Positions 923 through 15,993 of a stretch of DNA of 64,000 nt are shown one piece after another; within the stretch, counting starts at the first letter, position 1; each line of letters begins with the position of its first letter. The notes under the pieces were generated by a model that saw only the letters and a program-made list of their open reading frames with translations, was not told the origin of the DNA and ran no database searches. Source of the stretch: Myxococcota bacterium (GTDB taxonomy: Bacteria; Myxococcota_A; Polyangia; Nannocystales; Nannocystaceae); assembly GCA_039028615.1 (NCBI GenBank), contig JBCCHT010000026.1:128001-192000 (forward strand). The letters run 5' to 3'. Both the position numbers and the translations under genes were made by a program.

Positions 923-1325
923 ATGGGCCAGCGACAATGGCGAGCGCGAGGGGGATCGGCGGACGCTGATGGTATCGGACGCAAGTGCGGCGATGCGATC
1001 GATAATGAACATCACGGACGTCTCGGGCGAGGTCGGTCGCCCAAGCAGTCCGCCCGGTTCCCGGTTCGTTCCCACGAACCGCCAATTGTCTCGATAACCG
1101 AGTTTTGGGGCCAAACCGCGTCGGAGGATCGAACTTGACCGGTCGATCCTCGACGACCCGAACGCGCACACTCGAACGACGACGGTCGCGTTCGTTCAGT
1201 AGCCGCCAAGACCCTGTTTCGCGTCGACCGAGCATCGCGAGCTCGGTCCGACGACCAAACCCGCGGACCCTCGCCGCGCCTCGCAGCCAAACGAGATGGG
1301 CACGGCGAGGGACCGCGGGTCGGGG

Positions 1326-3053
1326 CTACTGAAGGTACTCGGCGAAGCTCTCGTAGGGCTGAGCACCCACCACCAGGTGCTCATCCACGAAGAACGATGG
1401 CGTGCCATTGCCTCCCGAGGCGCGACAGATCTGCGACTCTCGCTCGATCCGCGCCTGCGTCTCGGCCGACTTCATGTCCGCCTCGAATCGCGCAACGTCG
1501 AGCTTCAGCTCGGTCGCAATCGCGATCATGTCTGCTTCGCTGCGTCGTTCGGGGCTGTCGAAGAGTCGCTCGTGCATCGCCCAGAACGCGCCCTGAGCAT
1601 GGGCGGCCACGCTCGCTCGCGCTGCGACCATCGCCCCGGGGTGCACCGCGAGCGGGTTGTGCAGCCACGCCACCGAAGCCTCGGGGTGCTCGTCGACCAC
1701 CTGATCGAGTGTCGCGCGGGCTTTGTTGCAGAACGGGCAATCGAACTCCGCACACTCCACCACCAGCTCGGTCGGGGCCTGGCCCTCCGTGCGCGTCGGG
1801 ACGTCGTGGGAGCGCACGTACTCCGTCGGGGTCGGCAGGTCCTCGGGTGCGTCGGACCGCTGCTGGTAGTCCTCCGCTGGAGCACCGTCGCCCGTCAGCA
1901 CCACGCCGATGTGCATCGTCTCCGCGTGCCCGGGGGGTACGGTCAGGGTCGCGCCCATGAGCAGGCCCTCGAGGCACGGTTTCAGCGAGTCATCGGGCTC
2001 GCCTTGCGACGTGACCTCCACCGACTCGATCACCGCGTGGCCGTCGTCGTCGGGCATCGCCGTCTGCAGTGACAGTTGCACCCGGTCGTACGGTCCCAGC
2101 GGGTAGTCGTCGAGACAGGAGCCGAACGAGGGTAGCCCCGAGAACTCCGGGGCACACCCGCCGCCGCAGCCCGGCTCGGGTGGGCACTCACCGTCGCAGC
2201 TCGGCTCCGGGCACGTGCCGTCGCAGCCCGGCTCCGCATCGCTCGGCGTGGGCGCAGGCGGCATCGCGGCCTCCGCTGGGGCCTGCGTCGTTCTTGCCGT
2301 CGGACCGCCGGGTCGGCTCGCCGGTCGTGCCTGCGCCGTGGGTGCCCCGTCGGCCGAGGCCGCTTTGGCCACCGAAGGCTCCGAGCCATCGGCTTCGCCC
2401 ACGCTCGTGAATGCCACCGCCAAGGCGCCGGCCGTCAGCAGTCCGGCGCCCGTCCATTTCAACATCGTCGTCTTGATCATCGAGGGTTCTCCTGGCGATG
2501 AGCCCGACGAAGGAAGGGGCAAGGCGAACACTGCAGCCATCCCGCAGGTCCACGTCGCCCGATCCTCGTAGCGCTCGTCGAGTGTCCTCCGCATGCGGCG
2601 GAGACCTTCCTGCACCCGCCAGCGAATCGTGCCAGCGGGACAGCCCTCGGAGCGTGCGATGTCGGCCGCCGTGCGGTCCTCGAAGAACTTTGCCTCCAAT
2701 ACCCGTCGATACGGTGCGTCGAGCGTGGCCAGTGCCTCGTGCAGGGCACCGACCATCTCCGCTCGCGCCGTCGCATCCTCGACGCCCTCCGTCGCGTCCA
2801 CGGTGTCCATCACTTGCTCACGAGTTCGGCGACGAATCGTGCGACGAGTGAAGGCCCGGTGCTCGTTGCGAAGCACCTGCCGCAACCACGGACGCAAGCT
2901 CCGCGGGCGCGTGGACTGACTGAGGGCGTTGACCATGGCTTGTTGAGCAATGTCTTCGGCGTCATCGCTTCTCACCAACTGGCGGGCCAGCGACCGCAAG
3001 GCCTCGGCCTGCCCGGCGAGCTCCGAGCGAAAGTCGACGTTTGGCTGCGTCAT
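1326..3053 (-). CDS. ECF sigma-70 factor fused via a TM helix to a DsbA/thioredoxin domain
   Basis: Sigma region 2 (AEDIAQQAM...WLRQVLRN), region 4 (AADIARSEGCPAGTIRWRVQEG), hydrophobic segment (GAGLLTAGALAVAF), C-terminal EFDCPFC...NGTPSFFVD. Start taken at MTQPNVD. Confidence 0.85.
   Translation of the reverse strand: MTQPNVDFRSELAGQAEALRSLARQLVRSDDAEDIAQQAMVNALSQSTRPRSLRPWLRQVLRNEHRAFTRRTIRRRTREQVMDTVDATEGVEDATARAEMVGALHEALATLDAPYRRVLEAKFFEDRTAADIARSEGCPAGTIRWRVQEGLRRMRRTLDERYEDRATWTCGMAAVFALPLPSSGSSPGEPSMIKTTMLKWTGAGLLTAGALAVAFTSVGEADGSEPSVAKAASADGAPTAQARPASRPGGPTARTTQAPAEAAMPPAPTPSDAEPGCDGTCPEPSCDGECPPEPGCGGGCAPEFSGLPSFGSCLDDYPLGPYDRVQLSLQTAMPDDDGHAVIESVEVTSQGEPDDSLKPCLEGLLMGATLTVPPGHAETMHIGVVLTGDGAPAEDYQQRSDAPEDLPTPTEYVRSHDVPTRTEGQAPTELVVECAEFDCPFCNKARATLDQVVDEHPEASVAWLHNPLAVHPGAMVAARASVAAHAQGAFWAMHERLFDSPERRSEADMIAIATELKLDVARFEADMKSAETQARIERESQICRASGGNGTPSFFVDEHLVVGAQPYESFAEYLQ
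2146..2235 (-). repeat. Three tandem EPxCxGxC peptide repeats inside the sigma-DsbA protein
   Basis: EPGCDGTCP-EPSCDGECPP-EPGCGGGCAPE. Confidence 0.7.
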
Positions 3054-3182
3054 CGTTTCGTCGGGCTCGATGCCGCCGGGGCGGGAAGTGATGGCTTTGG
3101 AAGACACTTTTTGTGGGGTCAACGGTGCGACGGGGCGTATTGTCGCGGATTTCTTGGCGAAAATCCGACCCGCTCGGTCTCG

Positions 3183-3803
3183 TTAGAGCGTCGGCCACAC
3201 CGCGGCCGCCATCCCACACGCGACCTGCGCTCTCTTCAGTGCGTTCGCCGTCGCATTTCCGGTACCGGCGCGGTGGAACTTGCCCTTGCGGATCTCGTAA
3301 ACGAGGCAGTAGCTCGGGTGAGCTTGGCCTGCCGGGTTGACCGACGTCATGTAGTGGTGGAGCAGCGTCGCCATCGTCTTGCCGACCCCGCGAGCGAGAG
3401 GTTCCTGGTTGGGGTAGAGCTTCAGCGCGCCCTTGCCCTTGGGGCCATCGAGCAGCACATCGGGGAATACCGAGATGTCCACCCCGTGGTAGTGCCAGTA
3501 TTTCTGCTTGGCGTTCGGTCGCTGCTTGAGCACCTTGACTCCCTTCGGAAGTTTGAATGGCTGCGCCTTGAAGGCGTTCACCACCGCTTGCTCGTGGGGG
3601 CGAAGTGCTCGTCCGCCTGGTTTGCCGTTCTTGAGGAGGCCGACCAAGTGGTGGAGTGCATTGACATAGCCGAGCATGGGACCCGACCGAGGGTATTTGT
3701 GGCCGGTGAGGATCGTCTGCTGGGCCATCGGAGTATGCGGCGCCATCAGCTTGGCGAGCGAGGAGAAGGTCAAACGAGGCGTGGTGTGGATCTTGGTCGG
3801 CAT
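3183..3803 (-). CDS. Basic hypothetical protein, possible degenerate PD-(D/E)XK fold
   Basis: 206 aa, Lys/Arg/His-rich; VDISVFPDVLL...GALKLY resembles nuclease motifs II/III; 16 bp downstream of the caspase gene. Confidence 0.7.
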   Translation of the reverse strand: MPTKIHTTPRLTFSSLAKLMAPHTPMAQQTILTGHKYPRSGPMLGYVNALHHLVGLLKNGKPGGRALRPHEQAVVNAFKAQPFKLPKGVKVLKQRPNAKQKYWHYHGVDISVFPDVLLDGPKGKGALKLYPNQEPLARGVGKTMATLLHHYMTSVNPAGQAHPSYCLVYEIRKGKFHRAGTGNATANALKRAQVACGMAAAVWPTL

Positions 3804-3819
3804 GATCGAGTTCGGTTCG

Positions 3820-5709
3820 TCAGGGTCGTGGGTCGAGCTCGAAGTCGATGCGACCCATGGTCCATTGCTCCGAGACGGTGAAGGGCCGATGCATCGCTCC
3901 CCGATTGGGAGACGGGACGGCCAGGTTCAGCCCCTGTGCCGCGAACGCGGTTGGATCGTCCGGAGACGGGGGCGTGATCAGGTGACCCATTGCGATGGGT
4001 CTTCGGCTTGCGAGGATGAGCAGCTGTTGTGCGCGTGGATGATCCTTGGGAACACGGGCCGGCCAGCGGCAGGTCAGGCCCTGACGTCGTCGATGGGCCC
4101 GTCGCCCCACGTAGCGCCGCGCTCCGGGGCGGAGTTCCATCCCCTCGGGCTCGTGCGTGTTGAGGAGGTTCAGCCGTCCTTCGACGCTGAGTTCCAGCAC
4201 GGATGCGAACCACTGGCGGGGAGTCGTTCCGCGGTGCTCGAGGGCGATCCAGAGTCGGCTCCCGGCCCGAACGCGAGGGAGGCTGGCGCCCGTCGGCAAA
4301 GTACTCGGCAAGGAAATGGCCTCGCCGTCGGGTCCGAGCACACCCCAGCTCCAGGTTACGTCCGTGCTGGTCGCGGCATGGGGCGAAGCGGTGGCGAGCG
4401 AATCCAGCAGTCGTCGAGCGCGAGCTCGGTCTTCGAGCAGGGTGATGAGTTCCGGTCGGGTGGCGTGCTCGTCGGGAAAGTCGAGCCACAGCGGACGTCC
4501 GCGATCGTCGAAGACATCGAGGGTCGTGCTCGAGTTCGCCGTTGGCTGCAGCGAGGCGATGCGGGCATCCTCGGTGGGCGCGATTGGCCGCACGAGGCCC
4601 GAGGTCTCCAACGTTGCGTGTAGCTCCCGGTCGTCGTGCACGGTCACTGGAATGCGCCGATCGAGCCGCTGCACGATGGCCGACGCCCCCGCCACGGGCC
4701 GTGCGGTCGCGTTGGACAGCACGACCTCGCTGCTGTCGAGATCGACCCGTACGACCTCGGCTTCGGCCTCGAACCGGTGTCGTCCGTCTGCATGGAGCTC
4801 GAGCGCCGCGATGCCCCAGCGGTCGCCCGTATGCACGCCCTGCAGCATTCCCGCCCGAATCCAACCGCGGCCAGGCGTGCTCGCGGGGATGAACGCGGCG
4901 CTGTAGGGCACGGGGGCGGCCGCGGTGGACAGCAAGAGGCGATGCCTCGGTCCCGCCAAGACCACCCGCTGTTCTTCGGTCCCTCGATGACGACTCGCCT
5001 GCTCTCGGGCTCGATGCGCCACCGTGTCCCAGGTGACGCGATCGCAGCGAAGGCCTGCTTCTCGAACGGTCTCGACGAAGGAGCGAGTCAGCAGGCCATA
5101 CAGGCCCGCCGTCGTCTCGTCCGCGTACGCATGGCGCAACGCGGACGAACCGAACAGACGCACGATTCGCGGGTGCCCTTCGGTCGCCAGCAGCAGCGGC
5201 GGCGCCGTTTGCTCGTGGTACTGGTCATCGAGCTCGGTGACCCACGCGGGCGGGGCTACGGTGGGGACCCAGTCGTCACGCACGGTCGCTGCGGCATGGC
5301 AACAGTCGATGATTGCGGTGACGTTGCGACAAGTGTGATCGAGCCGAGTCAGACCATCGGACAGCTCGATATCGAGCAGCCCCACCCGCTGTCGTGAACC
5401 CTGCGGTCGAAGGGTCGCCAGATAAAACACGACCCGCTGCCCGAGGTCTCCACGGAGGCCCGAGAACTTCACCGCGCCGCCGTGACCGAAGAAGTAGAAC
5501 AAGCACGCATCGCCTGGTTGGCAGGCCGACACCATGGCCGTCAGGGCGGCGAGAACTCGGGAGCGAGTCGCGTCTGGCCCCGTGCACAGGGTGAGCGTCC
5601 AGCCGCCGAGATCCTGCAAAAGCGCCGCGATGGCCCCGCTGCCCGCCTCTGGCTGGAGCTCTCCAGAAATGGCCCGTTCGGGCACCCCGACGATGAGTGC
5701 GTGTTTCAT
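3820..5709 (-). CDS. Caspase-family (peptidase C14) protease with C-terminal extension, PCaspase-like
   Basis: KHALIVGV start, LFYFFGHGG (His76), IIDCCH (Cys137), GLLTRSF; DUF4384-like beta-rich C-terminus. Confidence 0.9.
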   Translation of the reverse strand: MKHALIVGVPERAISGELQPEAGSGAIAALLQDLGGWTLTLCTGPDATRSRVLAALTAMVSACQPGDACLFYFFGHGGAVKFSGLRGDLGQRVVFYLATLRPQGSRQRVGLLDIELSDGLTRLDHTCRNVTAIIDCCHAAATVRDDWVPTVAPPAWVTELDDQYHEQTAPPLLLATEGHPRIVRLFGSSALRHAYADETTAGLYGLLTRSFVETVREAGLRCDRVTWDTVAHRAREQASRHRGTEEQRVVLAGPRHRLLLSTAAAPVPYSAAFIPASTPGRGWIRAGMLQGVHTGDRWGIAALELHADGRHRFEAEAEVVRVDLDSSEVVLSNATARPVAGASAIVQRLDRRIPVTVHDDRELHATLETSGLVRPIAPTEDARIASLQPTANSSTTLDVFDDRGRPLWLDFPDEHATRPELITLLEDRARARRLLDSLATASPHAATSTDVTWSWGVLGPDGEAISLPSTLPTGASLPRVRAGSRLWIALEHRGTTPRQWFASVLELSVEGRLNLLNTHEPEGMELRPGARRYVGRRAHRRRQGLTCRWPARVPKDHPRAQQLLILASRRPIAMGHLITPPSPDDPTAFAAQGLNLAVPSPNRGAMHRPFTVSEQWTMGRIDFELDPRP

Positions 5710-5721
5710 CTTCCCCGCCGA

Positions 5722-5913
5722 CTACCGAGTGGAGCCATCGAGGCAGTAGTTGCAGGGGTCGTAGCCAGCGCGCCCGGCTTCGGAGCGTGTACGGAAATAG
5801 GTGCGTTGTTTGATCTTCTCGAGCTGGCAGCCCGACTTCCGGTTCTGCGGATAGTGGTACTCTTTGGTGTTCTGATTGCCGAGATACGGGTATGGGGTGG
5901 ATTGAATCGCCAT
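5722..5913 (-). CDS. Stand-alone Ada-type metal (Zn)-binding domain protein
   Basis: 63 aa: YLGNQNTKEYH...C...YFRTRSEAGRAGYDPCNYC matches the Ada_Zn_binding pattern; 12 bp upstream of the caspase. Confidence 0.8.
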   Translation of the reverse strand: MAIQSTPYPYLGNQNTKEYHYPQNRKSGCQLEKIKQRTYFRTRSEAGRAGYDPCNYCLDGSTR

Positions 5914-6031
5914 TGCAGCGACGGTGTCGACATCGCTAGAGTCGGTCCGTCGTTTCCGAAATACGAACCCGTGAGTTAGCTCCGCGAAAAGTCATGGACC
6001 GTTTCGATGTTCTCGACACTGAGTCGGGCGC

Positions 6032-8686
6032 ATGGCCAAGCGGCGACGATTGCGATCGGTGACGAGCCGTCGGTTGAACCACGACCAGTCGTCGGGTGAA
6101 GCTGGCGATAGCGCCGTGACCGACGACTTCGATCAGGCGGCTGGGGACGAGGGGACCTTGGATTCTCTCCCACCGGCCATCGCTCAGCTCGGTGTCGACG
6201 TCCAGGCCGAGTACGTGCGAGCACGCGAGCGCTTGGGCCTCGGAGAAGGCCTCGGCTCACGAGGGCTGGAGGTCGGCCGCTACCGTCTCGAAGAGCAGAT
6301 CGGTCATGGCGGCATGGGCATCGTCTATCGGGCGCACGACCCGGAGCTCGATCGACCGATCGCGATCAAGCTGGTGCAGGCCAAGCCCTTTGCGCAGCCC
6401 GACAAGCTTCGTCGGCGACTGCTGCGGGAGGCCAAGGTGCTCGCCAAGCTCACGCACCCCAATGTCGTGCGCGTCTATGACTGTGGCGAGCACGATGGCG
6501 AGGTGTTCTTGGCGATGGAGTTCGTCGAGGGGACGACTCTGCGGGACTGGCAAGAAGGCAAGCCGCGCCGCGCCGTGCTGGAGGCGTACGAGAAGGCAGC
6601 CCGAGGCCTCGCGGCGGCGCACGAGCTGGGGGTCATCCATCGGGACTTCAAACCCGACAACGTATTGGTGGCCAACGATGGTCGAGTGCTGGTGGGTGAC
6701 TTCGGGTTGGCGGGTCTCGTCGCCAGCGAGCCGATGCGCGGGGCTGGAGTTCAGCCCGCTGTGTCCGCGAGCGGGCGCATGTCGGCGACGCGAACGGGGA
6801 GCCTGCTCGGGACTCCGATGTACATGGCGCCCGAGCAGCTCCGGGGCGACGCTGCGACACCGCAGAGCGACCAGTTTGGGTTCTGCGTGGCGCTGTGGGA
6901 GGCGCTGACTGGATCGAGGCCGTTCGAGGCGGAGCAGGCGATCGTGTTGCTGCAGCGGATCGAGGAAGGCCGGCCAAAGGCGGTGGCGGAGGTGCCTCGG
7001 CGGCTTCGGGCTCGGTTGTTGCGGGGGCTATCGGCGGATCCGCAGGCTCGGTTCGAAGAGCTGAGCGAGCTGGCGGATAGGCTGCTGCCGCGACCGCGGA
7101 TGGTGGTGCTGGGATCGGCGCTGGGGCTCTCGTTGGTGGTCGGGCTGGTCGTTGGGAACGAGATGGCCAAGGAGCCCGAGCCCGAGTGCGAACTGGCGGC
7201 CAAGGCCGAAGAGGTTGGCGACCTTCCGGGCTGGAATGCCATCGAGACCATACTGTCTGGCGATCTGAGTCCATACCACAGGCGCCTCCGCCGTCGGTTC
7301 GACATGATGGAAGAGCAGGCCGCAACACTTTGTAGGTCGGTCGGGAACGTCTCCGAGATGGGCGCTCGTGACGAGCTGGGACGGCGATTCGAGTATCTTG
7401 AGAGCATCGTAACTAGCTCTTGGAAGCCGAAGGAACTGACTTCCATCATCATGGAGTTTGACGAGGGGGCTTGGAGGGAACCGCCTCCCCGACCTATTGC
7501 CCGCGAGGTCACTGTGCCCTTGCAGAGTGCGCGCATCAAACAGCTCGGTGGAATTGCCGATGCCGAGTCGGGCTACGAGGGGACTCCATCGGAAGTCGCA
7601 GAAGGAGCGGTCGTTGCGTCTGGAAGCAAAGACCTCGAGCTGGCGATTGCCAAGCGATGGAAAGGTCGATTCCTAGCACTTGAAGGCGATCATCAGGCCG
7701 CCAAGGCTAACTTTCGCGAGGCGGTGATGCACGCCGACGTTGCAGACTACGACGACGCGCGTATGGAGGCCCGGCTCATGATGGCCAAAACCATGATCAT
7801 GCGGCTAGGAGACGATGTTCGGGGTCTCGAGGACCTCGAGTATGCGTACGCGTTGATGCGAAAACACCACGAACCTTGGCTCAGCCCACGGAGGGCCCAA
7901 TACGAGGAGTTGCTATCGTCGGTTCTCAAGCAGCGTCAGGATTGCCGCCTGGCGCCCGCTCTTTGGCACCAGACGCATGCCTTGATCATTCGCCATTTGA
8001 GTGGAGACCTCCAGGCGCAATCGATGGGGCATATGAACCTGGCCCGTGTCTATGAGCTGTGCGGCCCTTCGCCCGAGCAGGAACGGCGCCATCTCCGTAT
8101 AGCCGTGGAGCTAGTGGAGAAACTACCTGGGAGCGCTGAACGAACGCAGGCGGCATTCGCCTTCGGTCATTGGCTGGCTGGGAACGGGAATGAATCCGAA
8201 ATGCCCCTCGCTGCGAGATTCCTCGAGGAGGCTCGGGCCAACCCGGACGTGGAGTCCTTCGCGCTATCCGACCTCATCATTCTCGCCGTGCATAACGGCC
8301 AGGACAAGAGGGCCGTACGCCTGGGAAACGAGCTTCAGACCGTGCTCGAGACCAGACCCCCAACGCTCCCGTCGAAGCGACGCGAAGCGTGGAGCATCGT
8401 CGCGATGACGTACGCCCTGGTTGGAAATGTAGAGGCATTCGACGGCGCTCGGCAGCGGTTTCTACAGGAGCGCGAACGTGACCCTTCCGTAGCATCCGAT
8501 CGTCAGCTCATTCGCCTGGATCTGATGGCTGCCGATTTCCTCCGTGAAGAGCGCCCACAGCGAGCCCGAGCTCTCGCGAAATCAACTCTCGCGATCGCAG
8601 CCTCTCTGCCCGGATCAGGTGAAGATGAAGATTTCATTCAAGAGGCCAAGGAGCTGATCGCATCGACCGAGGGACTCGAACACTAG
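6032..8686 (+). CDS. Ser/Thr protein kinase with TM segment and helical TPR-like C-terminus
   Basis: IGHGGMG, IAIK, HRDFKPDN, DFGLA, GTPMYMAPEQ; TM VVLGSALGLSLVVGLVVG. Confidence 0.92.
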   Translation: MAKRRRLRSVTSRRLNHDQSSGEAGDSAVTDDFDQAAGDEGTLDSLPPAIAQLGVDVQAEYVRARERLGLGEGLGSRGLEVGRYRLEEQIGHGGMGIVYRAHDPELDRPIAIKLVQAKPFAQPDKLRRRLLREAKVLAKLTHPNVVRVYDCGEHDGEVFLAMEFVEGTTLRDWQEGKPRRAVLEAYEKAARGLAAAHELGVIHRDFKPDNVLVANDGRVLVGDFGLAGLVASEPMRGAGVQPAVSASGRMSATRTGSLLGTPMYMAPEQLRGDAATPQSDQFGFCVALWEALTGSRPFEAEQAIVLLQRIEEGRPKAVAEVPRRLRARLLRGLSADPQARFEELSELADRLLPRPRMVVLGSALGLSLVVGLVVGNEMAKEPEPECELAAKAEEVGDLPGWNAIETILSGDLSPYHRRLRRRFDMMEEQAATLCRSVGNVSEMGARDELGRRFEYLESIVTSSWKPKELTSIIMEFDEGAWREPPPRPIAREVTVPLQSARIKQLGGIADAESGYEGTPSEVAEGAVVASGSKDLELAIAKRWKGRFLALEGDHQAAKANFREAVMHADVADYDDARMEARLMMAKTMIMRLGDDVRGLEDLEYAYALMRKHHEPWLSPRRAQYEELLSSVLKQRQDCRLAPALWHQTHALIIRHLSGDLQAQSMGHMNLARVYELCGPSPEQERRHLRIAVELVEKLPGSAERTQAAFAFGHWLAGNGNESEMPLAARFLEEARANPDVESFALSDLIILAVHNGQDKRAVRLGNELQTVLETRPPTLPSKRREAWSIVAMTYALVGNVEAFDGARQRFLQERERDPSVASDRQLIRLDLMAADFLREERPQRARALAKSTLAIAASLPGSGEDEDFIQEAKELIASTEGLEH

Positions 8687-8776
8687 ATCTCCGATCACTC
8701 TCTTTCCGACTACACACTCGACCACGAACAACAACAACCGTTCACGCTTCGCGTGAGCGCAGGAACACTCGTACCT

Positions 8777-9187
8777 ATGTCCACACCTCTCATCGTCACC
8801 AATGTCACCCCCGTCGATCTGAGCGGTCTCGTCAACGAGGCCAAAGAACTCCAGATACAGCACTCCAGCGCTTGCCTGTCCGATCACGGCCAGCAGCTGA
8901 ATGCCGAACATCGCGATCTCAATGCACCGACTGGCACTGTCCGTATCAAGATCGAGGATTTCGCTAGCCAAGGCGAGAACTGGCAAATCTCCGTCTCTCA
9001 CCAAGAGAGCGGAGTGCCCAGCACGTGGCCTCGCAACGGTAACCACGCCTATCATGACTTCAATGCCATGACCGATGCGCTGGAGGTCGACGTGGTCGCC
9101 ACGAGCACCGGTTCGCCGAGCGCTTCGAAGACGCGCAAGATTTGGATCAAGACCACTTCGGTCGATGGCCAGCCCGATCGCCCATAG
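8777..9187 (+). CDS. Small hypothetical protein (136 aa, beta-rich)
   Basis: ATG 8777 preceded by AGGAAC; lies between the kinase and sigma on the same strand. Confidence 0.7.
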   Translation: MSTPLIVTNVTPVDLSGLVNEAKELQIQHSSACLSDHGQQLNAEHRDLNAPTGTVRIKIEDFASQGENWQISVSHQESGVPSTWPRNGNHAYHDFNAMTDALEVDVVATSTGSPSASKTRKIWIKTTSVDGQPDRP

Positions 9188-9248
9188 CGCGGCCGGGGTG
9201 CTCGCCCTCGCCTATCGGGGGAGTCGTGGACGTGCTAGAAGCGCGAAC

Positions 9249-9902
9249 ATGGACTCCCCCGGAGGCGCCGATCTCGAACTGCTCGAATCCTGGCGTGGAG
9301 GCGATGGCAGGGCGGGCGAGCGGCTGTTGGCGAAGCACTTCGAGCGGATTCGGCTGTACTTCCGGACCAAGTATCCCGAGGCGCACGAGGACCTCTTGCA
9401 GGAGACGTTCTCACGGGTCGTGGCCAACCGCGACGAGTTCCGAGGAGAGTCTTCGTTCAAGACCTATCTGTTTCGGATCGCGAGCTACGTGGGGCACGAG
9501 TATGTGCGCAAGCGGTATCGCCACGGAGGCGACTTCTCGCCCGCGAACAGCTCGCTGGCAGACCTCACCGGCCGGCGTCAGTCGTCGCTGCTCGCGGAGC
9601 GCGAGGAGCATCGGCTGCTGCTCGATGCCATTCAGCAGCTGAACCTCGAGCAGCTGGACGTCATCCACCTCTACTACTGGGAGGAACTCTCGGCCAAGCA
9701 AGTGGGCGAAGCACTCGAGGTCCCGGAATCGACCGTGCGGAGCCGGCTGAGACAAGCCAAGGCGAATCTCGCCAAGGTGCACCGCGAGCTGGGCGAGGAG
9801 AAGCACTCGCGCGAACTCTCTGAGGACGACGTGGAGCAGTGCCTTCGAGACCTGCGAGGAGAACTCCGGCAGGCTCCATCGAGGAAAGAGCACACGAGCT
9901 AG
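9249..9902 (+). CDS. ECF RNA polymerase sigma factor
   Basis: DLELLESWRGGD, EDLLQETF, SFKTYLFRIA, LSAKQVGEALEVPESTVRSRLRQA. Confidence 0.92.
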   Translation: MDSPGGADLELLESWRGGDGRAGERLLAKHFERIRLYFRTKYPEAHEDLLQETFSRVVANRDEFRGESSFKTYLFRIASYVGHEYVRKRYRHGGDFSPANSSLADLTGRRQSSLLAEREEHRLLLDAIQQLNLEQLDVIHLYYWEELSAKQVGEALEVPESTVRSRLRQAKANLAKVHRELGEEKHSRELSEDDVEQCLRDLRGELRQAPSRKEHTS

Positions 9903-9968
9903 AAACGTTGGCTCCCTCGCGGGGAAGGGTCGGGCTCCCGGTGGCGGGGCCTCGGCCCCTTCGGTGGT

Positions 9969-11120
9969 GTGAACCGTCGAAATACCGATCATCTCGCCGT
10001 CGATGCACCCATCGTGGCCGTGTTCACGGCGAATCCATCCACCTTGACTCGCCTCGATCTCGAAGGGGAGCTCCGCAGCATCACTGACGAACTCGACCAA
10101 GTCGGGCTCCGTGGGGTCCTGCGTTTCCAGTGCGAGCCGGCTGCGACCCCCGCCGCGGTGCAGCGTGCCCTGTTGATGGATCGACCGACCGTGGTCCAGT
10201 TCAGTGGCCATGGGCGGGGCAGTGGTCGTCGGCGCCGCGCGTCGACACATGGCCGCCGCGACTTGGTCGTGGAGGATGAGCCGGTCGGTGCCACGGGGAT
10301 CATGATGCACGGAGATGCGAGGCGGCCGGTGAAGGTCGTCTCCGGGGCCGCGCTCGGGGATCTGTTCGCCAAGGCTGGCTCGAGCGTTCGTCTGGTGTTC
10401 CTCAATACCTGTCACTCCGAGGAGCAGGCGGACGCGCTCATCGAGCATGTCGATTTCGTCGTTGGAGTCGATGGTGCGATCTCGGACGAGGCGGCTCGGG
10501 TCTTTGCCACCGCGATGTATCGGGGACTCGCGTTCGGCCGTTCGGTCCGGGCTGCGTTCGATCTTGGGGTCACCGCCCTGAAGATGGAGGGGCTCGAGGA
10601 CGACTGGGCTCTGCCCGTGCTGAGTGTGAGGCCGGGAGCGGATCCGAAGGCGACGACGTTCGTCGATGCTCCGAAGCGCAGAAATGAGCAAGCCTGGGAC
10701 GCCTTCGTCTCGTACGCGAATACGGATTTCGAGCCCGTCCGCTGCCTCGCCGAAGCACTCCACAAGCGACAGCTCGAGATTTTTCTCGACGAATGGGAGA
10801 TCTTGCTGGGCGAAGAAGAAGGACGAAAAAAGGACGACGGCATCCGGGGCAGCGCCCACGGGATCTTGGCCCTGTCTCCGCAGACGATGACTCACCCCTG
10901 GGTCGAGGCGGAGTATGCGGCTCTGCTCGAAAAGGCGGTCTCAGACCGAAGGCGGCTGATCCCGGTGCTCGTCGGCGAGGGGGATGCTCAGCTTCCCCCC
11001 TTCCTCAGAGCGCGCCGCTATGTGGACCTCCGCGGAAAATCGGGCGCTGCGTACGAGCGAGAGGTCGAGTCGATTGCACTGGCGCTACGGGGAATACGGC
11101 GCGGGCCACCGCCGCGCTGA
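9969..11120 (+). CDS. CHAT protease-TIR domain fusion
   Basis: CHAT: FTANP, VVQFSGHG (His81), LVFLNTC (Cys148). TIR: WDAFVSYA, IFLDEWEI, PWVEAEY, LIPVL, YVDLR. Confidence 0.9.
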   Translation: MNRRNTDHLAVDAPIVAVFTANPSTLTRLDLEGELRSITDELDQVGLRGVLRFQCEPAATPAAVQRALLMDRPTVVQFSGHGRGSGRRRRASTHGRRDLVVEDEPVGATGIMMHGDARRPVKVVSGAALGDLFAKAGSSVRLVFLNTCHSEEQADALIEHVDFVVGVDGAISDEAARVFATAMYRGLAFGRSVRAAFDLGVTALKMEGLEDDWALPVLSVRPGADPKATTFVDAPKRRNEQAWDAFVSYANTDFEPVRCLAEALHKRQLEIFLDEWEILLGEEEGRKKDDGIRGSAHGILALSPQTMTHPWVEAEYAALLEKAVSDRRRLIPVLVGEGDAQLPPFLRARRYVDLRGKSGAAYEREVESIALALRGIRRGPPPR

Positions 11121-11134
11121 CCGGTGCCCGATCG

Positions 11135-11167
11135 GCGTACCCGACGAACCTGCTTCGTCGGGTACGC
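11135..11167. terminator. Perfect 14-bp hairpin between convergent genes (likely bidirectional terminator)
   Basis: GCGTACCCGACGAA-CCTGC-TTCGTCGGGTACGC. Confidence 0.65.
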
Positions 11168-11194
11168 TTCGAGGCCAGGTCGGTCGGGGGCGCG

Positions 11195-14100
11195 TCAGCG
11201 TTCGTCGCCGAGGTCGTCGAGTGAATCAGGTTCAACCGCTCGGAACCCGAGGTACGCCACGCGGTTGTCGGCATTGCGATTGAGGCGATACGCAGACCGT
11301 GCCTTGCGAGCGGGGTCGATCCAGCATCCACCGCGGATCACTCGGTTTCCATTCTCGAGCGGAGGATGGCGGAGCCCGTCACCGGTTCTCGGTGGGCAGC
11401 CGCGGTAGTCGCCGAACTCGTCGAGGCACCACTCCCACACGTTGCCGTGGACGTCGTAGAGCCCCAGCGGGTTGGCGTCCAGCTCACCCACCAGGTGTAG
11501 CCTCTGCTCGGAATTGTCGGCGTACCAACCGACCCGCGCGAGGTCCGAGTCTTCCCAGCCCGACCAGAAGGCGGTCCGGGTTCCTCCTCGAGCGGCACGC
11601 TCCCATTGCGCTTCGGTGGGGAGCGACAGCCCGGCCCACTCGCAGTAGGCCTTGGCCTCGTGCCAGGAGACGCCGACCACGGGCTGACGCGGTTGGTTGT
11701 AGCGGCCGTCTCCCCAGTATTTGGGCTCCAGGACCTTTGGGTTGGCCCGCAGATAGTAGCCATACTCCTCGTTGGTCACCGGGTGCGTCCCCATGAAGAA
11801 ACGGTCGAGCTCGACGTCGTGACGGGGACCTTCGCTACCTTTGCGGCCTCGCTCTCGACCATGCGAGCCCATCTTGAAGCACTCGGCGGGAATCAAGACG
11901 AGGCCGTAGCCACTCTTGGTGGACACACGGTGCTGCGGTTCCGGTCGTTGCTCTGGCAGGAAGAGCCGACGGAGAGGCTCATGCGGGTGCCGGGCCAGCT
12001 GTTCGGACACGGTCGATAGCCGATCGGGCTGAACCCTCTTCAGGAGCTGGGCGGCGGCGATCTGGCCGGGCCAGTGCTCTGGGCTGTCGTCCGACGGGGT
12101 GAGCAAATACTCGAGGAACGGCTCGATGCTGGCGTCCGCGGCCTCGCGGAGGCAGTCGACGAGTAGCTCGAGATGTTCTCCGACCATCGGTTGCTTCAAG
12201 ACCTCGCGGATCGTCGGCACGAAGAGCGCGGGCTCGCCGAGTGCGAGCAGCAAGATGGTCACCTCGCGCCACCACGGGTCGCCGAAGTGCTCGGCCAGCC
12301 GCTGGAGGATGCTGGGGTCACCGTGGGAGAGGCTTCGTAGGTGTCGGGCGCACAGGTATTCCTGGAAGCACAGGTGGAGCAGTCCGTAGCTATCCGATTC
12401 CTTCGAGCACAGGATGCCATCTTCGGTGCTCACGTTCTTTAAGAAGGCTTCGGCGTCGACGGGGTCGTCGTAGGCGAGAGCCGCATTGAGATGGGGCTCG
12501 ATGACACGGGCGATGGATGCAGCGTCGGCGTGGGTACGGCCTCGTTCCTCGTGCAGCCAGTACGCCAAGGGCTGCAGCAGCTGGTGTGCTTCGCGATCGC
12601 CGAAGCGACGGGGAAGCTCACCTCTGCCGCGCCACTTGTGCAGGAGGACCTGGAGGCACTGCTCGTAGAGCTCGCCCCGCCTGGCGGGCAAGCCTCCACG
12701 TTGGTGAAACACGGCGCACAGGACCGTGAGCATCAGGGGATTGCGGGCCAGCTCGAACATCCGAGTCGCTCGAAATTCGGGCGCCTCCAGCTGAGTGGAT
12801 AGCGCCTCGGCGCGACGTCGCGCCTCGGATGCCGACAGCCCTTCGTCGGAGGCACGGAACCATCGGACGATGAGGTTCTCGGCCTCGGCCTTGCCCAAAG
12901 GAGGGAGCTGGACCTCGAGCACGGGGGTCGACCATCGTCCCTCGGAACCCGGCTCCAACGGTCGCTGGGTGAGCATGAAGCGGGCTCGGGGATGTTCTCG
13001 CAGGCCCTGGTCGATCCACCGCGTGACGCGCTCACGACGTTCATGCGTGGGGAGCTCGTCGAAACCGTCGACCAGGAAGAGCAGGTGTTTCCGCTTCAGG
13101 AGCGCATCGATGAGCGAAGCGTCGACGCGAGAGTCTCGTTGCAGATACGTAGTAATGGCATCGTGCAGATCTTCGAGCTCGGGCGGCAGCTCGTGGAGAG
13201 GGAGCACGATCGGCACCGTATCGACCGGGAGCCCGAGGGTCTTGGGGTTTCGCCGCGCCAGCCACAGCGCGACACGTCGAAGATGCGTGGATTTGCCCGA
13301 GCCCGGGGGACCGACCAGCACGACGACTCGGCAGTCCTTCTTGGCTGCCTGCTGGAACACCTGGTGGAGTTCGAAGTCCGGCTCCTCGGTGTCTGGCGCG
13401 TCGTCGTCCGTCGAGCGAGCCGGTGTCGGCCTGACTTTCACGCGGAGGTCGTCGATCCGGAGTGTGTTCTCGAGCAAGGCGCTGGGTCCCAGCATGGTCG
13501 TGGTGGCGCTGTCTTGCTCTACGAGTTCGAGATAGCCCGACACATCTCGCGCTGGCCGTCGCTGGGTACTGGATGACGGGGTCGCCGTCCTCTGGCGTTT
13601 CGGTGCTTTGCTCCGCTTGGGCTTGGCGGGGGATGGTCCGTCGTTCTCCGGGGAGGCGGCGTTAGAGGGCGGAGGCTCGTCGGCGGCTGGAGCCTCGGCG
13701 GGCAGAGGTAGCGGTCGTACGGGCTTCATGGCACCGCCCTGCCGCCACTCGTGAAGGTTGTGAGTCACCTTCGAACCGACGTTCTCCGGTGTGAAACGAA
13801 TCGTGACCTCCTCTGCCTCGAGGCGAGATTTGAGCGCTTGAAGGCGACTTTGCTTGGCCCAACGTTGATCCAGGGCGTCGAACGCCCGGCCGACGACTAC
13901 GGGTTGCTGTTCGTCGATCAGGAAGACCAGCCGAGGGATCTTCTGCTCCAGTGCCCATTCGTACTCGAGTTCGATGAGTGAGCGGTCGTGGTCGGGTGGT
14001 GCGTCGCCGTAGCGCCACGACACCATCATCAAGAAGAGATCACAGCTCTCGAGTTGCTTTCGACGAGCTTCGAGCGCTGCCGTTCCGGCTCCGCTGGCGA

Positions 14101-14710
14101 GGGGCTCTTGAGGTACGACGACCATGCCGACCTCCTGGATTGTCTCGAGTAGCTGGTCGCGCAGGTCCGCGTCGTGATCCATGGTGGACGAGAGAAACAC
14201 CCGATAGGGAGTGGGGGCCGCAGGTTCGGCTGCTCCCGGCCATCCCGCTTGCGGTGAGTCCCCGAGCCGCTGGCGAAGCGCTGGTCCCGGATCGAAGCCG
14301 ATGATCAGCTCTGGTGCCTGTCCGGTGACACCCGCGATCAATCGTTCGAAACCGTCGTGATCGGTGAGGTCGACCCATGTGCGCGCCCGTAGGAACCCGT
14401 CGATGCTGTCCTTGGAGGCACCCGGTAGCAGGACGGGGATGACCCGGCTTTTGGATTGATCGATGAGGGCGAGCTGGCTTTCCTGGTCTCTCCAGGCATC
14501 GGCTCCTCCGGGCCCGAAGAACACCGCGACGGTCTTGCTGCTCTCGATCGCTTGCTCGAGCGCAGGGACCCACTGTTCGCCTGGTACCAACATCCACCGC
14601 CGAAAGTAGGGGTGCAGTTCGGCTTCGCTCCGTAGCCGTTGTGCGAACACTTCGACCTCGGATTCATCGTGATTGGTATGCGAGAGGAAGACGTCGTATT
14701 CGTCGGACAT
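11195..14710 (-). CDS. TIR-DUF4062-NACHT-FGE/SUMF1 multidomain (NLR-like STAND) protein
   Basis: TIR: YDVFLSH...WRDQE. DUF4062: RVFLSST, RYG, SLIELEYEWA. Walker A GPPGSGKST, Walker B LVDGFDE, NPLML, HLCFQEYLCA. FGE: FKMGS, PVTNEEY, LPTEAQWERAARGG, YDVHGNVWEW, RVIRGG, GFR. Confidence 0.92.
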   Translation of the reverse strand: MSDEYDVFLSHTNHDESEVEVFAQRLRSEAELHPYFRRWMLVPGEQWVPALEQAIESSKTVAVFFGPGGADAWRDQESQLALIDQSKSRVIPVLLPGASKDSIDGFLRARTWVDLTDHDGFERLIAGVTGQAPELIIGFDPGPALRQRLGDSPQAGWPGAAEPAAPTPYRVFLSSTMDHDADLRDQLLETIQEVGMVVVPQEPLASGAGTAALEARRKQLESCDLFLMMVSWRYGDAPPDHDRSLIELEYEWALEQKIPRLVFLIDEQQPVVVGRAFDALDQRWAKQSRLQALKSRLEAEEVTIRFTPENVGSKVTHNLHEWRQGGAMKPVRPLPLPAEAPAADEPPPSNAASPENDGPSPAKPKRSKAPKRQRTATPSSSTQRRPARDVSGYLELVEQDSATTTMLGPSALLENTLRIDDLRVKVRPTPARSTDDDAPDTEEPDFELHQVFQQAAKKDCRVVVLVGPPGSGKSTHLRRVALWLARRNPKTLGLPVDTVPIVLPLHELPPELEDLHDAITTYLQRDSRVDASLIDALLKRKHLLFLVDGFDELPTHERRERVTRWIDQGLREHPRARFMLTQRPLEPGSEGRWSTPVLEVQLPPLGKAEAENLIVRWFRASDEGLSASEARRRAEALSTQLEAPEFRATRMFELARNPLMLTVLCAVFHQRGGLPARRGELYEQCLQVLLHKWRGRGELPRRFGDREAHQLLQPLAYWLHEERGRTHADAASIARVIEPHLNAALAYDDPVDAEAFLKNVSTEDGILCSKESDSYGLLHLCFQEYLCARHLRSLSHGDPSILQRLAEHFGDPWWREVTILLLALGEPALFVPTIREVLKQPMVGEHLELLVDCLREAADASIEPFLEYLLTPSDDSPEHWPGQIAAAQLLKRVQPDRLSTVSEQLARHPHEPLRRLFLPEQRPEPQHRVSTKSGYGLVLIPAECFKMGSHGRERGRKGSEGPRHDVELDRFFMGTHPVTNEEYGYYLRANPKVLEPKYWGDGRYNQPRQPVVGVSWHEAKAYCEWAGLSLPTEAQWERAARGGTRTAFWSGWEDSDLARVGWYADNSEQRLHLVGELDANPLGLYDVHGNVWEWCLDEFGDYRGCPPRTGDGLRHPPLENGNRVIRGGCWIDPARKARSAYRLNRNADNRVAYLGFRAVEPDSLDDLGDER

Positions 14711-14889
14711 GGGTGCACTCGTTGGCCCCGTGTCGCGAAGGGCGAAAATCAGCATTCGAAAATGAGTATTTCGAGTCGAGTAAGCTCACGAGATTAAATC
14801 CACGAAACCATGGACCGAGTGGTGCCTTGGTGACACTGGCCCCGCCGTGCCCCAACGATTTCACCCTGGGCACGAGGTGGAGGCTCGGT

Positions 14890-15993
14890 ATGACCGATCA
14901 CCATGGAAAACGCCTGGATCTACTCATCCTCGCTCGTCTCTGTACGGCGGGTACTCGTCCTCCTTCCGCAGCCAAGCTGGAAAAGGACCTGTACGCGTTC
15001 TTGGAAGCCAAACTCTCTCAGCCCGAATGGGGGTCGAGGTGCTCGGAGCATCTCGCTTCGATGCTCGAGCGCGGCGATATCGACGAGCGTCGCAGCCCGA
15101 CACCCCAGGGACGCCAGCGGCTGATGCAGGCCTTGGGTGTTCGGGCTCTTCCTCCGCGATGGTCGAAGATGTGGCGGGCTCTGTTGCCGGCGCTGGCGCT
15201 CGATTTGCCTGGGCCTCGATGGTCGGAAATCGGGAGCGCGGAGGCACTCCGGGCTCGGATCATTCGCCAGCACCACGATCTGTCGATCGCCGACACGCCC
15301 ACGCTGACGCAGGCCGTCGACGCTCAGGCGTGGCAGGCCCTGGGCATCGACGAGACGGGGCCGCTGACGCTGGGCAAGATTCGGAGGGCTTTGCTCGAGC
15401 GGACCTTGAGCGCACCGATCCGGGCCAAGTCGGTGGATACGGCGAAGGCCGGACAGTGGTTGGCGACGGGCGCGGTTGGAACGACGACGCGAGACGTGGC
15501 CGCGATTCAGCGCGCGCTGGTGTGTCGCTGGGTCTTTGACGAAGAGCCCAAACCCAAGCCCACGTCAACGGAGATCACGGTCGTGACCCCGCGGCGGACC
15601 ACACCGGCGCGGCCGAAGCAGCTCCCGTTGACGCCGCCGAAAGGGAAGCGCCGCAAGAAGAAGCGGAGGCAGGCGAACGCAACGCCGACGCTGAAGCAAT
15701 GGGCCGAGCAAGTTCAATCGCTGGCCGATCGGATGAAAACCGGGCTCTACGGTGAGGAACGCGTGTTCATTGCCGCGGTCTGGCGGGCGGCTCAGCGAGG
15801 ATCGGCCGATCTTCACGGGCCCCTTGGCGAGTTCAAGTCGCGGCTCATCGAGGCCAATCGTGCCGGCCACCTACGTCTGCATCGAGCCGACCTCGTCGGG
15901 GCGATGGACGAGCGATTGGTCCGAGATTCCGAGATCGAACACCTCAACGCGAGCTTTCACTTCATCGAGATTCCGCCCCGGAGGATGTCATGA
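14890..15993 (+). CDS. Hypothetical basic protein, probable winged-helix nucleic-acid binder; partner of the downstream ATPase
   Basis: 367 aa with a KRRKKKRR linker and C-terminal VFIAAVW...FKSRLIEANRAGHLRLHRADLV; stop overlaps the next start (ATGA). Confidence 0.75.
   Translation: MTDHHGKRLDLLILARLCTAGTRPPSAAKLEKDLYAFLEAKLSQPEWGSRCSEHLASMLERGDIDERRSPTPQGRQRLMQALGVRALPPRWSKMWRALLPALALDLPGPRWSEIGSAEALRARIIRQHHDLSIADTPTLTQAVDAQAWQALGIDETGPLTLGKIRRALLERTLSAPIRAKSVDTAKAGQWLATGAVGTTTRDVAAIQRALVCRWVFDEEPKPKPTSTEITVVTPRRTTPARPKQLPLTPPKGKRRKKKRRQANATPTLKQWAEQVQSLADRMKTGLYGEERVFIAAVWRAAQRGSADLHGPLGEFKSRLIEANRAGHLRLHRADLVGAMDERLVRDSEIEHLNASFHFIEIPPRRMS

Follow-up and report, generated by a model that had tools for sequence, protein, structure and literature searches.

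A PCaspase-type protease module with a TIR-bearing CHAT protease next to an NLR-like gene in a Nannocystaceae genome

We analysed a stretch of 64,000 nucleotides (hereafter, the window) from a Myxococcota bacterium of the family Nannocystaceae (assembly GCA_039028615.1, contig JBCCHT010000026.1, positions 128,001 to 192,000 of the forward strand), which carries a candidate proteolytic cascade resembling the SAVED-CHAT/PCaspase module of Haliangium ochraceum. The host genome is 12.27 Mb long and 96.7% complete, and the G+C content of the window is 65%. Open reading frame (ORF) calls gave eight genes spanning positions 3183-14755 and, together with Pfam searches, bore out the gene set, the coordinates and the domains listed in an initial annotation made from the sequence alone. 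Below, related loci, proteins and genomes are cited by our own numbers with the prefixes L, P and G, respectively, G000 being the host genome. The locus and its flank contain the following features.

3183-3803, reverse strand: basic protein of 206 amino acids (aa) with an isoelectric point (pI) of 10.4; the gene lies 16 bases downstream of the caspase gene
3820-5709, reverse strand: 629-aa PCaspase-family caspase, a proposed executioner zymogen (PADLOC, fold, family alignment)
5722-5913, reverse strand: 63-aa Ada-like zinc-ribbon protein opening the caspase operon (Ada_Zn_binding match below the cut-off)
5914-6031, no strand: intergenic stretch (promoter region) separating the divergent caspase and kinase operons, with blocks kept in L003-L005
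6032-8686, forward strand: 884-aa Ser/Thr kinase, the PCk counterpart (Pkinase, 3.6e-40)
8777-9187 (the ORF opens at 8753), forward strand: small protein in the PCi position (144-aa ORF; 136 aa when counted from the conserved Met9)
9249-9902 (the ORF opens at 9075), forward strand: extracytoplasmic function (ECF) sigma factor, the PCc-sigma counterpart (Sigma70_r2, Sigma70_r4 and ECF in Pfam)
9969-11120, forward strand: 383-aa CHAT-TIR protein, a proposed initiator protease (CHAT, 2e-07, and TIR_2, 2.9e-20, in Pfam)
11195-14755, reverse strand: 1186-aa STAND (NLR-like) protein, a putative sensor (TIR_2, DUF4062, NACHT and FGE-sulfatase in Pfam)
14641-19814, forward strand: 450-aa protein assigned to no family and 1274-aa double P-loop protein, divergent from the NLR gene (Pfam; PADLOC mad8, 6.3e-21)

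The CHAT-TIR and NLR genes are convergent, with 74 bases between them. In CHAT-TIR, the CHAT domain occupies residues 18-196 (10020-10556) and the TIR domain, residues 246-363 (10704-11057). The NLR-like protein is comprised of a TIR domain (14336-14692, 1.7e-22), DUF4062 (13952-14203, 3.6e-12), NACHT (12851-13330, 1.4e-16), and an FGE-sulfatase/C-type-lectin-like domain (11234-11905, 5e-48). Reading of the sequences confirmed the catalytic dyads that had been claimed to be intact, H76/C137 in the caspase and H81/C148 in CHAT-TIR. The start of the sigma factor gene is uncertain, with Met31 at 9165 and Met59 at 9249 as the two candidates.

The initial annotation had also claimed that the locus has the same five component types as the H. 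ochraceum one. According to the available part of Steens et al. (10.1101/2023.06.23.546230), SAVED-CHAT oligomerises on cyclic triadenylate (cA3), is activated in a filament-dependent manner, and then cleaves PCaspase; PCaspase, a protease of broad specificity, cuts PCc-sigma and PCi, the latter being inhibitory. The same report ties the SAVED-CHAT module to the cyclic-oligonucleotide-based antiphage signalling system (CBASS) and type III CRISPR, and describes an abortive-infection-like phenotype. We sought SAVED-CHAT loci for comparison in 401 genomes of the same class. Full-length matches to the PADLOC SAVED_CHAT model were found in five genomes, in two of which (loci L023 and L024) a caspase match is located ~5 kb away from the SAVED-CHAT gene; these two loci stand in for the H. 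ochraceum sequences. Their gene order is SAVED-CHAT, sigma factor, a protein of 145 or 156 aa, and a ~1080-aa kinase, next to a Peptidase_C14 caspase of 670 or 719 aa.

When compared with these loci, the CHAT domain, the caspase, the sigma factor, the kinase domain, and the small protein of the window all proved to be related to the published module. The window caspase matches the L023 and L024 caspases in both its N-terminal part (1.8e-24 and 6.6e-23) and its C-terminal part (4.5e-04 and 1.6e-06), which places it with caspases encoded beside SAVED-CHAT. The sigma factor is 31-36% identical to the L023 and L024 sigma factors, and the kinase domain matches as well. The best PDB match of the CHAT domain is 8tl0, a SAVED-CHAT structure (7e-12), and the motifs FSGHG and NTCHS fall on its catalytic His and Cys columns. 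Moreover, the order CHAT-X, sigma factor, small protein, kinase, caspase is the one given by Steens et al. Since the five parts are homologous and identically ordered, we take the locus to carry, at the level of sequence, the same kinds of components in the same order as the published SAVED-CHAT/caspase module, so that the claim held when tested through L023 and L024.

The locus nevertheless differs from the H. ochraceum system in several respects. The CHAT domain of the window belongs to the same clade and has an intact dyad, as does the caspase, but it is followed by a C-terminal TIR domain, whereas the published protein has an N-terminal SAVED domain. The kinases have no C-terminal region in common, the Ada-like gene is extra, and the locus has a fixed NLR-like STAND neighbour with a TIR domain of its own. 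As for L023 and L024 themselves, PADLOC found no cmr genes in the 16-18 kb upstream, and these loci may not be CRISPR-linked on the scanned upstream side. Two further loci, L026 (7578-10008) and L027 (7214-11375), combine SAVED-CHAT with a SMODS cyclase and ThiF/E2 next to a kinase, a small protein, and a sigma factor, have no caspase within 16 kb, and correspond to the CBASS-type form mentioned by Steens et al.

No source of a cyclic oligoadenylate signal was found, in line with what had been noted at first. None of the 49 window ORFs scanned (11 + 38) matched a cas, CD-NTase or SAVED family. Genome-wide searches revealed neither SMODS nor Cmr2, the same searches being positive in three and five control genomes, respectively; Pfam SAVED was not found either, but here the control search was also silent. 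Thus, in contrast to the H. ochraceum system, no Cas10, CD-NTase or SAVED has been found in this genome, although, the assembly being 96.7% complete, the absence of a signal source is not proven. The SAVED_CHAT model matches CHAT-TIR at E 0.0022 over the CHAT part only, with no sign of SAVED. Three other matches to this model in the genome were considered and rejected, as those checked (two of the three) are ordinary CHAT proteins by Pfam. Such matches to ordinary CHAT genes include G000:C6:159850-160914 and G000:C29:16801-17886. In the majority of the genomes searched, ordinary CHAT proteins (600-1700 aa) give matches to positions 4-280 of the model, and therefore a match to it does not by itself demonstrate a SAVED domain.

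The 629-aa caspase has no Pfam match even at E 10. It was identified by the PADLOC model 'caspase' (4.5e-08), by NCBIfam caspase_w_EACC1 (1e-05, far below the family cut-off), by metacaspase PDB matches (E 0.005), in which FGHGG and DCCH align with the catalytic motifs, and by its fold. The AlphaFold2 (AF2) model, with a predicted local distance difference test (pLDDT) score of 83.8 and a predicted template modelling (pTM) score of 0.85, consists of a caspase domain (residues ~1-255), a beta domain (270-412), a long helix (418-444), and a second beta domain (450-629), that is, ~370 residues of extra beta-rich domains. GSU0716 is its best Foldseek match (5.9e-10), with MALT1 paracaspase and metacaspases also among the matches. 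H76, D135, C136, C137, and R144 are invariant across the 34 family members of the caspase profile, from which P0024, covering 56% of the query, was left out. The metacaspase-like Asp two residues ahead of the catalytic Cys is thus kept; together with a remark of Rousset et al. (10.1101/2024.10.24.620036) on Arg specificity, this suggests a probable P1 specificity of the active caspase for basic residues. R144 sits in a low-confidence loop (139-146) of the model just after the catalytic Cys, and one may speculate that this loop is a processing site. The genome encodes a second caspase of the same family, 28% identical, with a TPR ORF ahead of it (G000:C88:8300-9163, L002).

The kinase domain (residues 84-351) is followed by a hydrophobic stretch at ~356-375, as judged by eye, and then by a C-terminal region of ~500 aa. 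The best PADLOC model for this protein is the C3a189 'kinase' (9.5e-78), of which only positions 5-296 of 840 are matched, while the ~1080-aa kinases of L023 and L024 match it at full length. The sigma factor matches TIGR02937 at 1e-22.

The small protein required more attention. A six-frame caller based on codon log-odds favours an antisense ORF over it; still, we consider it real because it is conserved across loci. The 144-aa ORF has no Pfam match even at E 10 and no BLAST match to the small proteins of L023 and L024. However, the profile of its family aligns with the position-equivalent proteins of SAVED-CHAT loci in hhalign (probability 97.1, E 6.6e-11, 123 columns). The family has 95 representative clusters at E<=1e-3 and, by this sequence measure, is not an orphan; Steens et al. 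had detected no homologues of the H. ochraceum PCi in other prokaryotes (10.1101/2023.06.23.546230), so that the known range of the family is widened. The AF2 model (pLDDT 94.7) is an all-beta sandwich, and the family has an invariant C-terminal QPD-P tail. Its best structural matches are MakD (Z 8.5), SO1698 (Z 7.6), and PixA (Z 7.4). CI-2 is absent from its Foldseek and VIA-align matches; a CI-2-like fold is not supported, and in this the modelled protein may differ from the H. ochraceum PCi. The C-terminal half of the fold is repeated, in up to 20 stretches, in giant proteins such as P0126 (4298 aa), P0145, P0154, and others, and from this recurrence it appears to be a widespread beta-sandwich module.

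The components are conserved together in other genomes. Relatives of the window caspase occur in at least 57 of the 401 genomes of the class, a floor since the census used a stricter first look, and in 35 of the 71 genomes of its own family. We fetched 20 related loci with the caspase profile and compared the window proteins with them by tblastn. The caspase is linked to the kinase, the small protein, and the sigma factor in eight loci (L003, L004, L006-L011) from Paraliomyxa, Enhygromyxa, Plesiocystis, and other Nannocystaceae, and to the kinase and the sigma factor, with no match to the small protein, in six more (L012, L013, L016-L019). The kinase is 33-47% identical over ~790-880 aa in L003-L011, the small protein 41-53% identical in the eight loci, and the sigma factor 31-68% identical in 16 of the 20. 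L005 is a 3.9-kb contig with a partial kinase gene, the Ada-like gene and the caspase only, and L022 has kinase and sigma factor matches, the caspase there being identified by Pfam. Four distant loci, from actinobacteria and a cyanobacterium, have only the caspase, bar one weak kinase match in L014. L003 and L004 preserve the full arrangement, with CHAT-TIR, the Ada-like gene, and an NLR that is 57-62% identical. In L009, the caspase lies in a 1280-aa open frame that resembled a fusion but proved to be extended upstream by antisense sequence.

Eleven of the 20 loci contain a CHAT gene, and its fusion partner does swap, a point that the initial annotation had proposed to check. The partner is TIR in the window, L003, and L004, SIR2_2 in L006, L008, and L010, a paralogue of the module's sigma factor in L012, a weakly matching effector-associated domain EAD7 in L016, and none in L013; with SAVED in the loci described above and FGE in more distant ones, the list comprises TIR, SIR2, SAVED, FGE, sigma factor, weak EAD7 or no partner. 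In a second sample of 20 loci with more distant caspase relatives, we observed CHAT-FGE, caspase-CHAT, and caspase-nSTAND1-WD40 fusions, as well as TPR-CHAT neighbours. Judging by these gene arrangements, executioner-type caspases recur together with a second protease of clan CD, whose sensor or adaptor part varies. Individual cases include the fusion of CHAT to the sigma factor paralogue (L012 11778-13265), a caspase-nSTAND1-WD40 fusion beside a second caspase (L055 4261-9537), a 1283-aa caspase-CHAT fusion (L056 9057-12908), and a CHAT-FGE fusion (L058 4943-6724).

The domain fused to CHAT matches the N-terminal domain of the adjacent STAND protein, TIR going with TIR and SIR2 with SIR2. In the window, L003, and L004, CHAT-TIR adjoins TIR-DUF4062-NACHT-FGE. 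In L006, L008, and L010 (Enhygromyxa, Plesiocystis), a SIR2_2-nSTAND1-WD40 protein of 1515-1529 aa is encoded between the caspase and SIR2-CHAT, and the SIR2 domain of SIR2-CHAT is 32-33% identical to that of the STAND protein (tblastn, E 4e-16 and 6e-20 in L008 and L010). The two TIR domains of the window are 27% identical (E 1.3e-08). Among the five TIR_2 domains of the genome, those closest to the TIR of CHAT-TIR are the ones of the NLR and of an NLR paralogue on another contig; with only five domains, this ranking is weak evidence. The paralogue is a 1467-aa ORF whose TIR is 54% identical (G000:C85:9001-9420, L039).

The two genes also travel together. A full-length CHAT-TIR occurs in four of the six genomes of the genus, with a convergent NLR neighbour in all four, and in one of them (G167) the convergent pair is kept though the rest of the locus is rearranged. 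The NLR-type TIR was found in five of five other genomes of the genus and in none of the 67 other genomes of the family searched. In L013 and L046, a homologue of the NLR with FGE abuts the sigma factor and kinase genes.

We also predicted the complex of the two TIR domains, using custom alignments. The score was 0.41 (0.41, 0.32, and 0.43 in individual runs), compared to 0.00 for the best of three controls, with at least 91% of contacts common to the runs and the partner pLDDT of at least 75. Among solved complexes, 116 of 157 pass this mark, against 2 of 215 mismatched pairs; only 18 of the 157 do so with a score no higher than 0.60, a range that also includes both mismatches that passed. 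As solved TIR-TIR assemblies exist, the pass may reflect likeness to them. The suggested contact between CHAT-TIR and the TIR of the NLR is hence weakly supported by the prediction, and no more than that.

TIR and SIR2 domains are known as NAD-consuming death enzymes, and the state of their catalytic residues bears on what the paired domains do. W311-x3-E315 of CHAT-TIR aligns with the W-x3-E of AbTIR-type chains, the Glu of which we take to be the catalytic one (AbTir E208, SARM1 E642). The inactive E-to-Q TIR mutant of Rousset et al. (10.1101/2024.10.24.620036) agrees with this position. The family of CHAT-TIR comprises 38 TIR-bearing clusters; 36 sequences (the window protein and 35 clusters) were aligned, P0036 (the window's own shorter entry), P0068 (partial), and P0071 (666 aa) being left out. 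The CHAT dyad H81/C148 is invariant in all 36, and the position four residues after the Trp is Glu in 17, the others having Gln (12), Ala (2), Val (2), His (2), and Met (1).

In the SIR2 domains, the positions were taken from ThsA 6lhx, where N112 and H152 are presumably catalytic, and from the comparison of 9v0g with 9v12, which has Ala at two positions. The three STAND-borne SIR2 domains have Gly, Glu, and Gly in place of the Asn, and Cys in place of the His in all three, so that none is intact. In the three CHAT-borne ones (the CHAT ORF of L006 was recovered later than those of L008 and L010) the Asn is kept in all three and the His in one, and two metagenome CHAT-SIR2 proteins keep both residues. 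A STAND SIR2 lacking both catalytic residues is able neither to deplete NAD nor to produce a signal, and a scaffold is then the simplest function common to the paired domains. The decay of residues thus favours, as far as sequences go, a scaffold with homotypic recruitment over small-molecule signalling, and that of SIR2 is the strongest argument for docking or oligomerisation as the predicted role of the paired domains.

The best explanation of these comparisons appears to be a two-protease cascade of the PCaspase type in which a STAND/NLR-type sensor has replaced the cyclic-oligoadenylate sensor SAVED as the input. The computational checks support the original reading of the locus as an NLR/TIR-triggered CHAT-to-caspase cascade; from homology, linkage, matched domains, and residue decay we infer the individual steps of binding, cleavage, and phenotype, and we consider the following sequence to have a slightly better than even chance of being correct. 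The FGE/C-type-lectin-like domain of the NLR would bind an invader-derived molecule, upon which NACHT would oligomerise and gather the N-terminal TIR domains. The TIR of CHAT-TIR would join this array by homotypic contact, crowding the CHAT domains, and CHAT would be turned on by this crowding as its solved SAVED-CHAT relative is by forming filaments. CHAT would then cleave the 629-aa caspase zymogen. Substrates of the active caspase would be the ECF sigma factor and the inhibitor-like protein of 136 aa, along with numerous cellular proteins and perhaps the kinase. The predicted outcome is a transcriptional response with growth arrest or death.

A broader proposal, which we regard as tentative and somewhat less likely to be true than false, is that TIR and SIR2 have turned into homotypic adaptors, counterparts of CARD and PYD, that dock CHAT on a STAND/NLR oligomer. 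The systems would then form a true bacterial inflammasome or apoptosome with an interchangeable input (SAVED, TIR, SIR2, FGE, TPR) and a constant output (caspase, inhibitor, sigma factor, kinase), and the decay of catalytic residues would represent a change from enzyme to adaptor that is under way.

Several observations weigh against recruitment through matched domains. Some of them concern the pairing itself. The NLR and CHAT-TIR genes are convergent and so are not co-transcribed, and the two TIR domains, at 27% identity, are not a recent duplicate. The instances of matched domains are not independent, as a single genus supplies all TIR loci and a single bacterial family all pairs. The three core loci L007, L009, and L011 have no CHAT gene in the fetched 10-22 kb. 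Finally, no STAND protein with EAD7 is encoded near the weakly matching EAD7-CHAT of Nannocystis, and the rule of matched domains is not seen there; apart from the CHAT gene, a search of three Nannocystis genomes for EAD7 yielded a single distant ORF of 599 aa, and every match was below the Pfam cut-off.

The convergent orientation, which precludes a single transcript, would be expected if the genes were merely neighbours in a defence island, the NLR being a self-contained TIR-STAND NADase and CHAT-TIR with the caspase module being triggered separately. STAND-FGS proteins with an N-terminal TIR have been described as stand-alone systems in the available part of Kaur et al. (2021, PMC8195603), and the NLR has divergent travelling partners of its own, the 450-aa and 1274-aa genes. 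However, mere neighbours would hardly account for the retention of the pair in four of four genomes, one with a rearranged locus, for the recurrence of like with like in three other loci with SIR2 and a different STAND clade, or for the NLR-FGE homologue next to the sigma factor and kinase genes in L013 and L046. We therefore consider independence of the neighbours unlikely.

The other points against the recruitment model concern the catalytic residues, whose positions rest on alignments with PDB chains and on residue numbers of known enzymes. A Glu is found one residue earlier in eight of the twelve CHAT-TIR proteins with Gln at the Trp+4 position, and the loss of catalysis in this family is therefore suggestive but unproven. 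The window's own CHAT-TIR retains Glu315, and the position is kept in 11 of 11 NLR-type TIR domains, which means that NADase activity or a signal is possible in the TIR variant. The cascade might then operate in a Thoeris-like way, with the catalytically intact TIR of the activated NLR producing an NAD-derived signal. Its receptor would be either the C-terminal part of the caspase, whose extra beta-rich domains could accommodate such a role, or the degenerate TIR of CHAT-TIR, standing in for SAVED. This is an improbable alternative in our view. The STAND-borne SIR2 lacks both catalytic residues in three of three cases and yet remains paired with SIR2-CHAT, and the pairing of like with like is what homotypic adaptors predict under the EAD principle (Kaur et al., 2021, PMC8195603, in its available part). 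Moreover, the known signal sensors named in the available part of Rousset et al. (10.1101/2024.10.24.620036) are SLOG, Macro, and SAVED, and not TIR or SIR2. Recruitment of CHAT to an oligomeric sensor hence remains our preferred reading.

The recruitment wiring could also serve another purpose, namely, a death or signalling circuit of myxobacterial social life, such as kin discrimination or development, whose output would come chiefly from the sigma factor and the kinase. In the searches made, the module did not extend beyond Polyangia (see the census above); it always carries a sigma factor and a large kinase, and FGS systems are enriched in multicellular bacteria according to the available part of Kaur et al. 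(2021, PMC8195603). At the same time, the homologous SAVED-CHAT module has ties to CBASS and type III CRISPR and gave an abortive-infection-like phenotype (10.1101/2023.06.23.546230, available part), and the repertoire of TIR, SIR2, STAND, and FGE is typical of anti-invader systems, which makes a social role quite improbable, more so than either of the two preceding alternatives. A sensor-driven cascade directed against invaders thus fits better.

The closest known systems also include the STAND NTPase-FGS conflict systems and their EAD principle (Kaur et al., 2021, PMC8195603). The window NLR has a C-terminal FGE/FGS and an N-terminal TIR, and, as in the EAD principle, a domain borne by the NTPase is repeated at a separate effector, predicting homotypic recruitment; this repeated domain is TIR here and SIR2 in L006, L008, and L010. 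The difference is that the common domain has an enzyme-type fold (TIR or SIR2) and is neither a small helical EAD nor Death-like, and that the recruited effector would start a second protease of a PCaspase module, a combination not described in the available part of that paper.

Type IV Thoeris, as presented in the available part of Rousset et al. (10.1101/2024.10.24.620036), is a TIR-caspase operon in which diffusible N7-cyclic ADP-ribose (N7-cADPR) activates the caspase directly. It shares with the window a TIR domain and a caspase-family protease that has a C-terminal extension and is likely promiscuous and specific for basic residues. In contrast to it, the window has a CHAT intermediary, a STAND sensor, and a TIR of a family often lacking the catalytic Glu, and is organised not as a TIR-caspase operon but as eight or more genes in two divergent operons with a convergent NLR. 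The CHAT and TIR protein of Thiohalocapsa PB-PSB1 (Dore et al., PMC10907252) also combines both domains in one polypeptide and belongs to putative conflict systems with lectin-fold sensors; however, it is itself a sensor diversified by a diversity-generating retroelement (DGR), and no PCaspase, sigma factor, kinase or separate TIR-STAND protein is described with it in the available part of the paper.

In the animal apoptosome and inflammasome, CARD-CARD or PYD-PYD contacts recruit initiator caspases to an oligomer of Apaf-1 or an NLR. The cascade proposed here would share with them a STAND oligomer, a homotypic adaptor, activation by proximity, and the passage from initiator to executioner, but the adaptor is TIR or SIR2 instead of a death fold, and the initiator is CHAT. 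This resemblance is an analogy and not evidence of common descent of the wiring.

PCaspase is listed among widespread protease-associated effectors in the available part of a recent report (10.1101/2025.11.14.688446), and the wiring with CHAT-TIR or SIR2-CHAT was not found in the literature searched, although the supplementary data of that report and of Steens et al. may overlap with it. What appears to be new is a PCaspase cascade with a STAND/NLR input, coupled by matched TIR or SIR2 domains that are seemingly turning from enzymes into adaptors. The PCaspase cascade has been known only as an accessory of cyclic-oligoadenylate signalling; the locus and its relatives indicate that NLR-like sensors may drive it as well, the plug between the sensor and the initiator protease apparently being a common TIR or SIR2 domain. 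If this is true, bacteria possess the full logic of the animal inflammasome, with a sensor oligomer, a homotypic adaptor, an initiator, and an executioner, and TIR and SIR2 can act as scaffolds without catalysis, which bears on the origin of the adaptor functions of animal TIR domains. The locus also offers a small, clean gene set for studying proximity activation of a prokaryotic caspase cascade.

The divergent intergenic region at 5914-6031 contains blocks conserved in L003 (9610-9800), L004 (9615-9795), and L005 (660-855). The blocks shared by the four genomes are CCAGTGTCG, AACGATCA, GGAGCTTGCTCAC, and GACACCGT, and may include sites bound by a regulator or by the sigma factor of the module itself. 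A consensus scan of positions 3000-15200 gave no sigma-70-like sites, compared to 1.3 in shuffled sequences, and seven terminator-like sites, compared to 5.9 (standard deviation 2.5) in shuffles, that is, no excess over chance.

The other two genes of the caspase operon differ in their conservation. The label of an Ada zinc finger given to the 63-aa protein stands in part: the Pfam match is below the threshold (E 0.0067, 16.9 bits against the cut-off of 23), while the gene is found upstream of the caspase at 54-57% identity in L003, L004, and L005, and in these only among the 20 loci (tblastn). The 206-aa protein had been called nuclease-like and counted as a member of the system. It is basic, but nothing supports the former: it has no match in Pfam, PADLOC or NCBIfam, and 16 unnamed relatives at 40-57% identity; with its gene found in none of the 20 related loci (tblastn), its membership in the system is doubtful.

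On the other side of the locus, the 450-aa and 1274-aa genes are possible companions of the NLR, as suggested by their location. They lie beside the NLR in L003 and L004 (the fetched DNA includes just the 450-aa gene there) and in G167, where they are situated between the NLR and a caspase only 25% identical to that of the window. The 1274-aa protein combines an AAA_16/STAND-like and a HerA/DUF87-like region. The coordinates recorded outside the window are L044 (9769-13859) and L061 (16877-20000); a similar pair, from a genome of another family, is located beside a caspase-restriction endonuclease (REase) gene.

Finally, the part of the window preceding the locus carries, on the reverse strand, a 598-aa ORF (1326-3122) in which ECF sigma factor regions 2 and 4 are joined through a Pro-rich linker to a C-terminal DsbA/thioredoxin domain. 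It is adjoined by another Ser/Thr kinase ORF (2-1171, reverse strand), which runs off the window.

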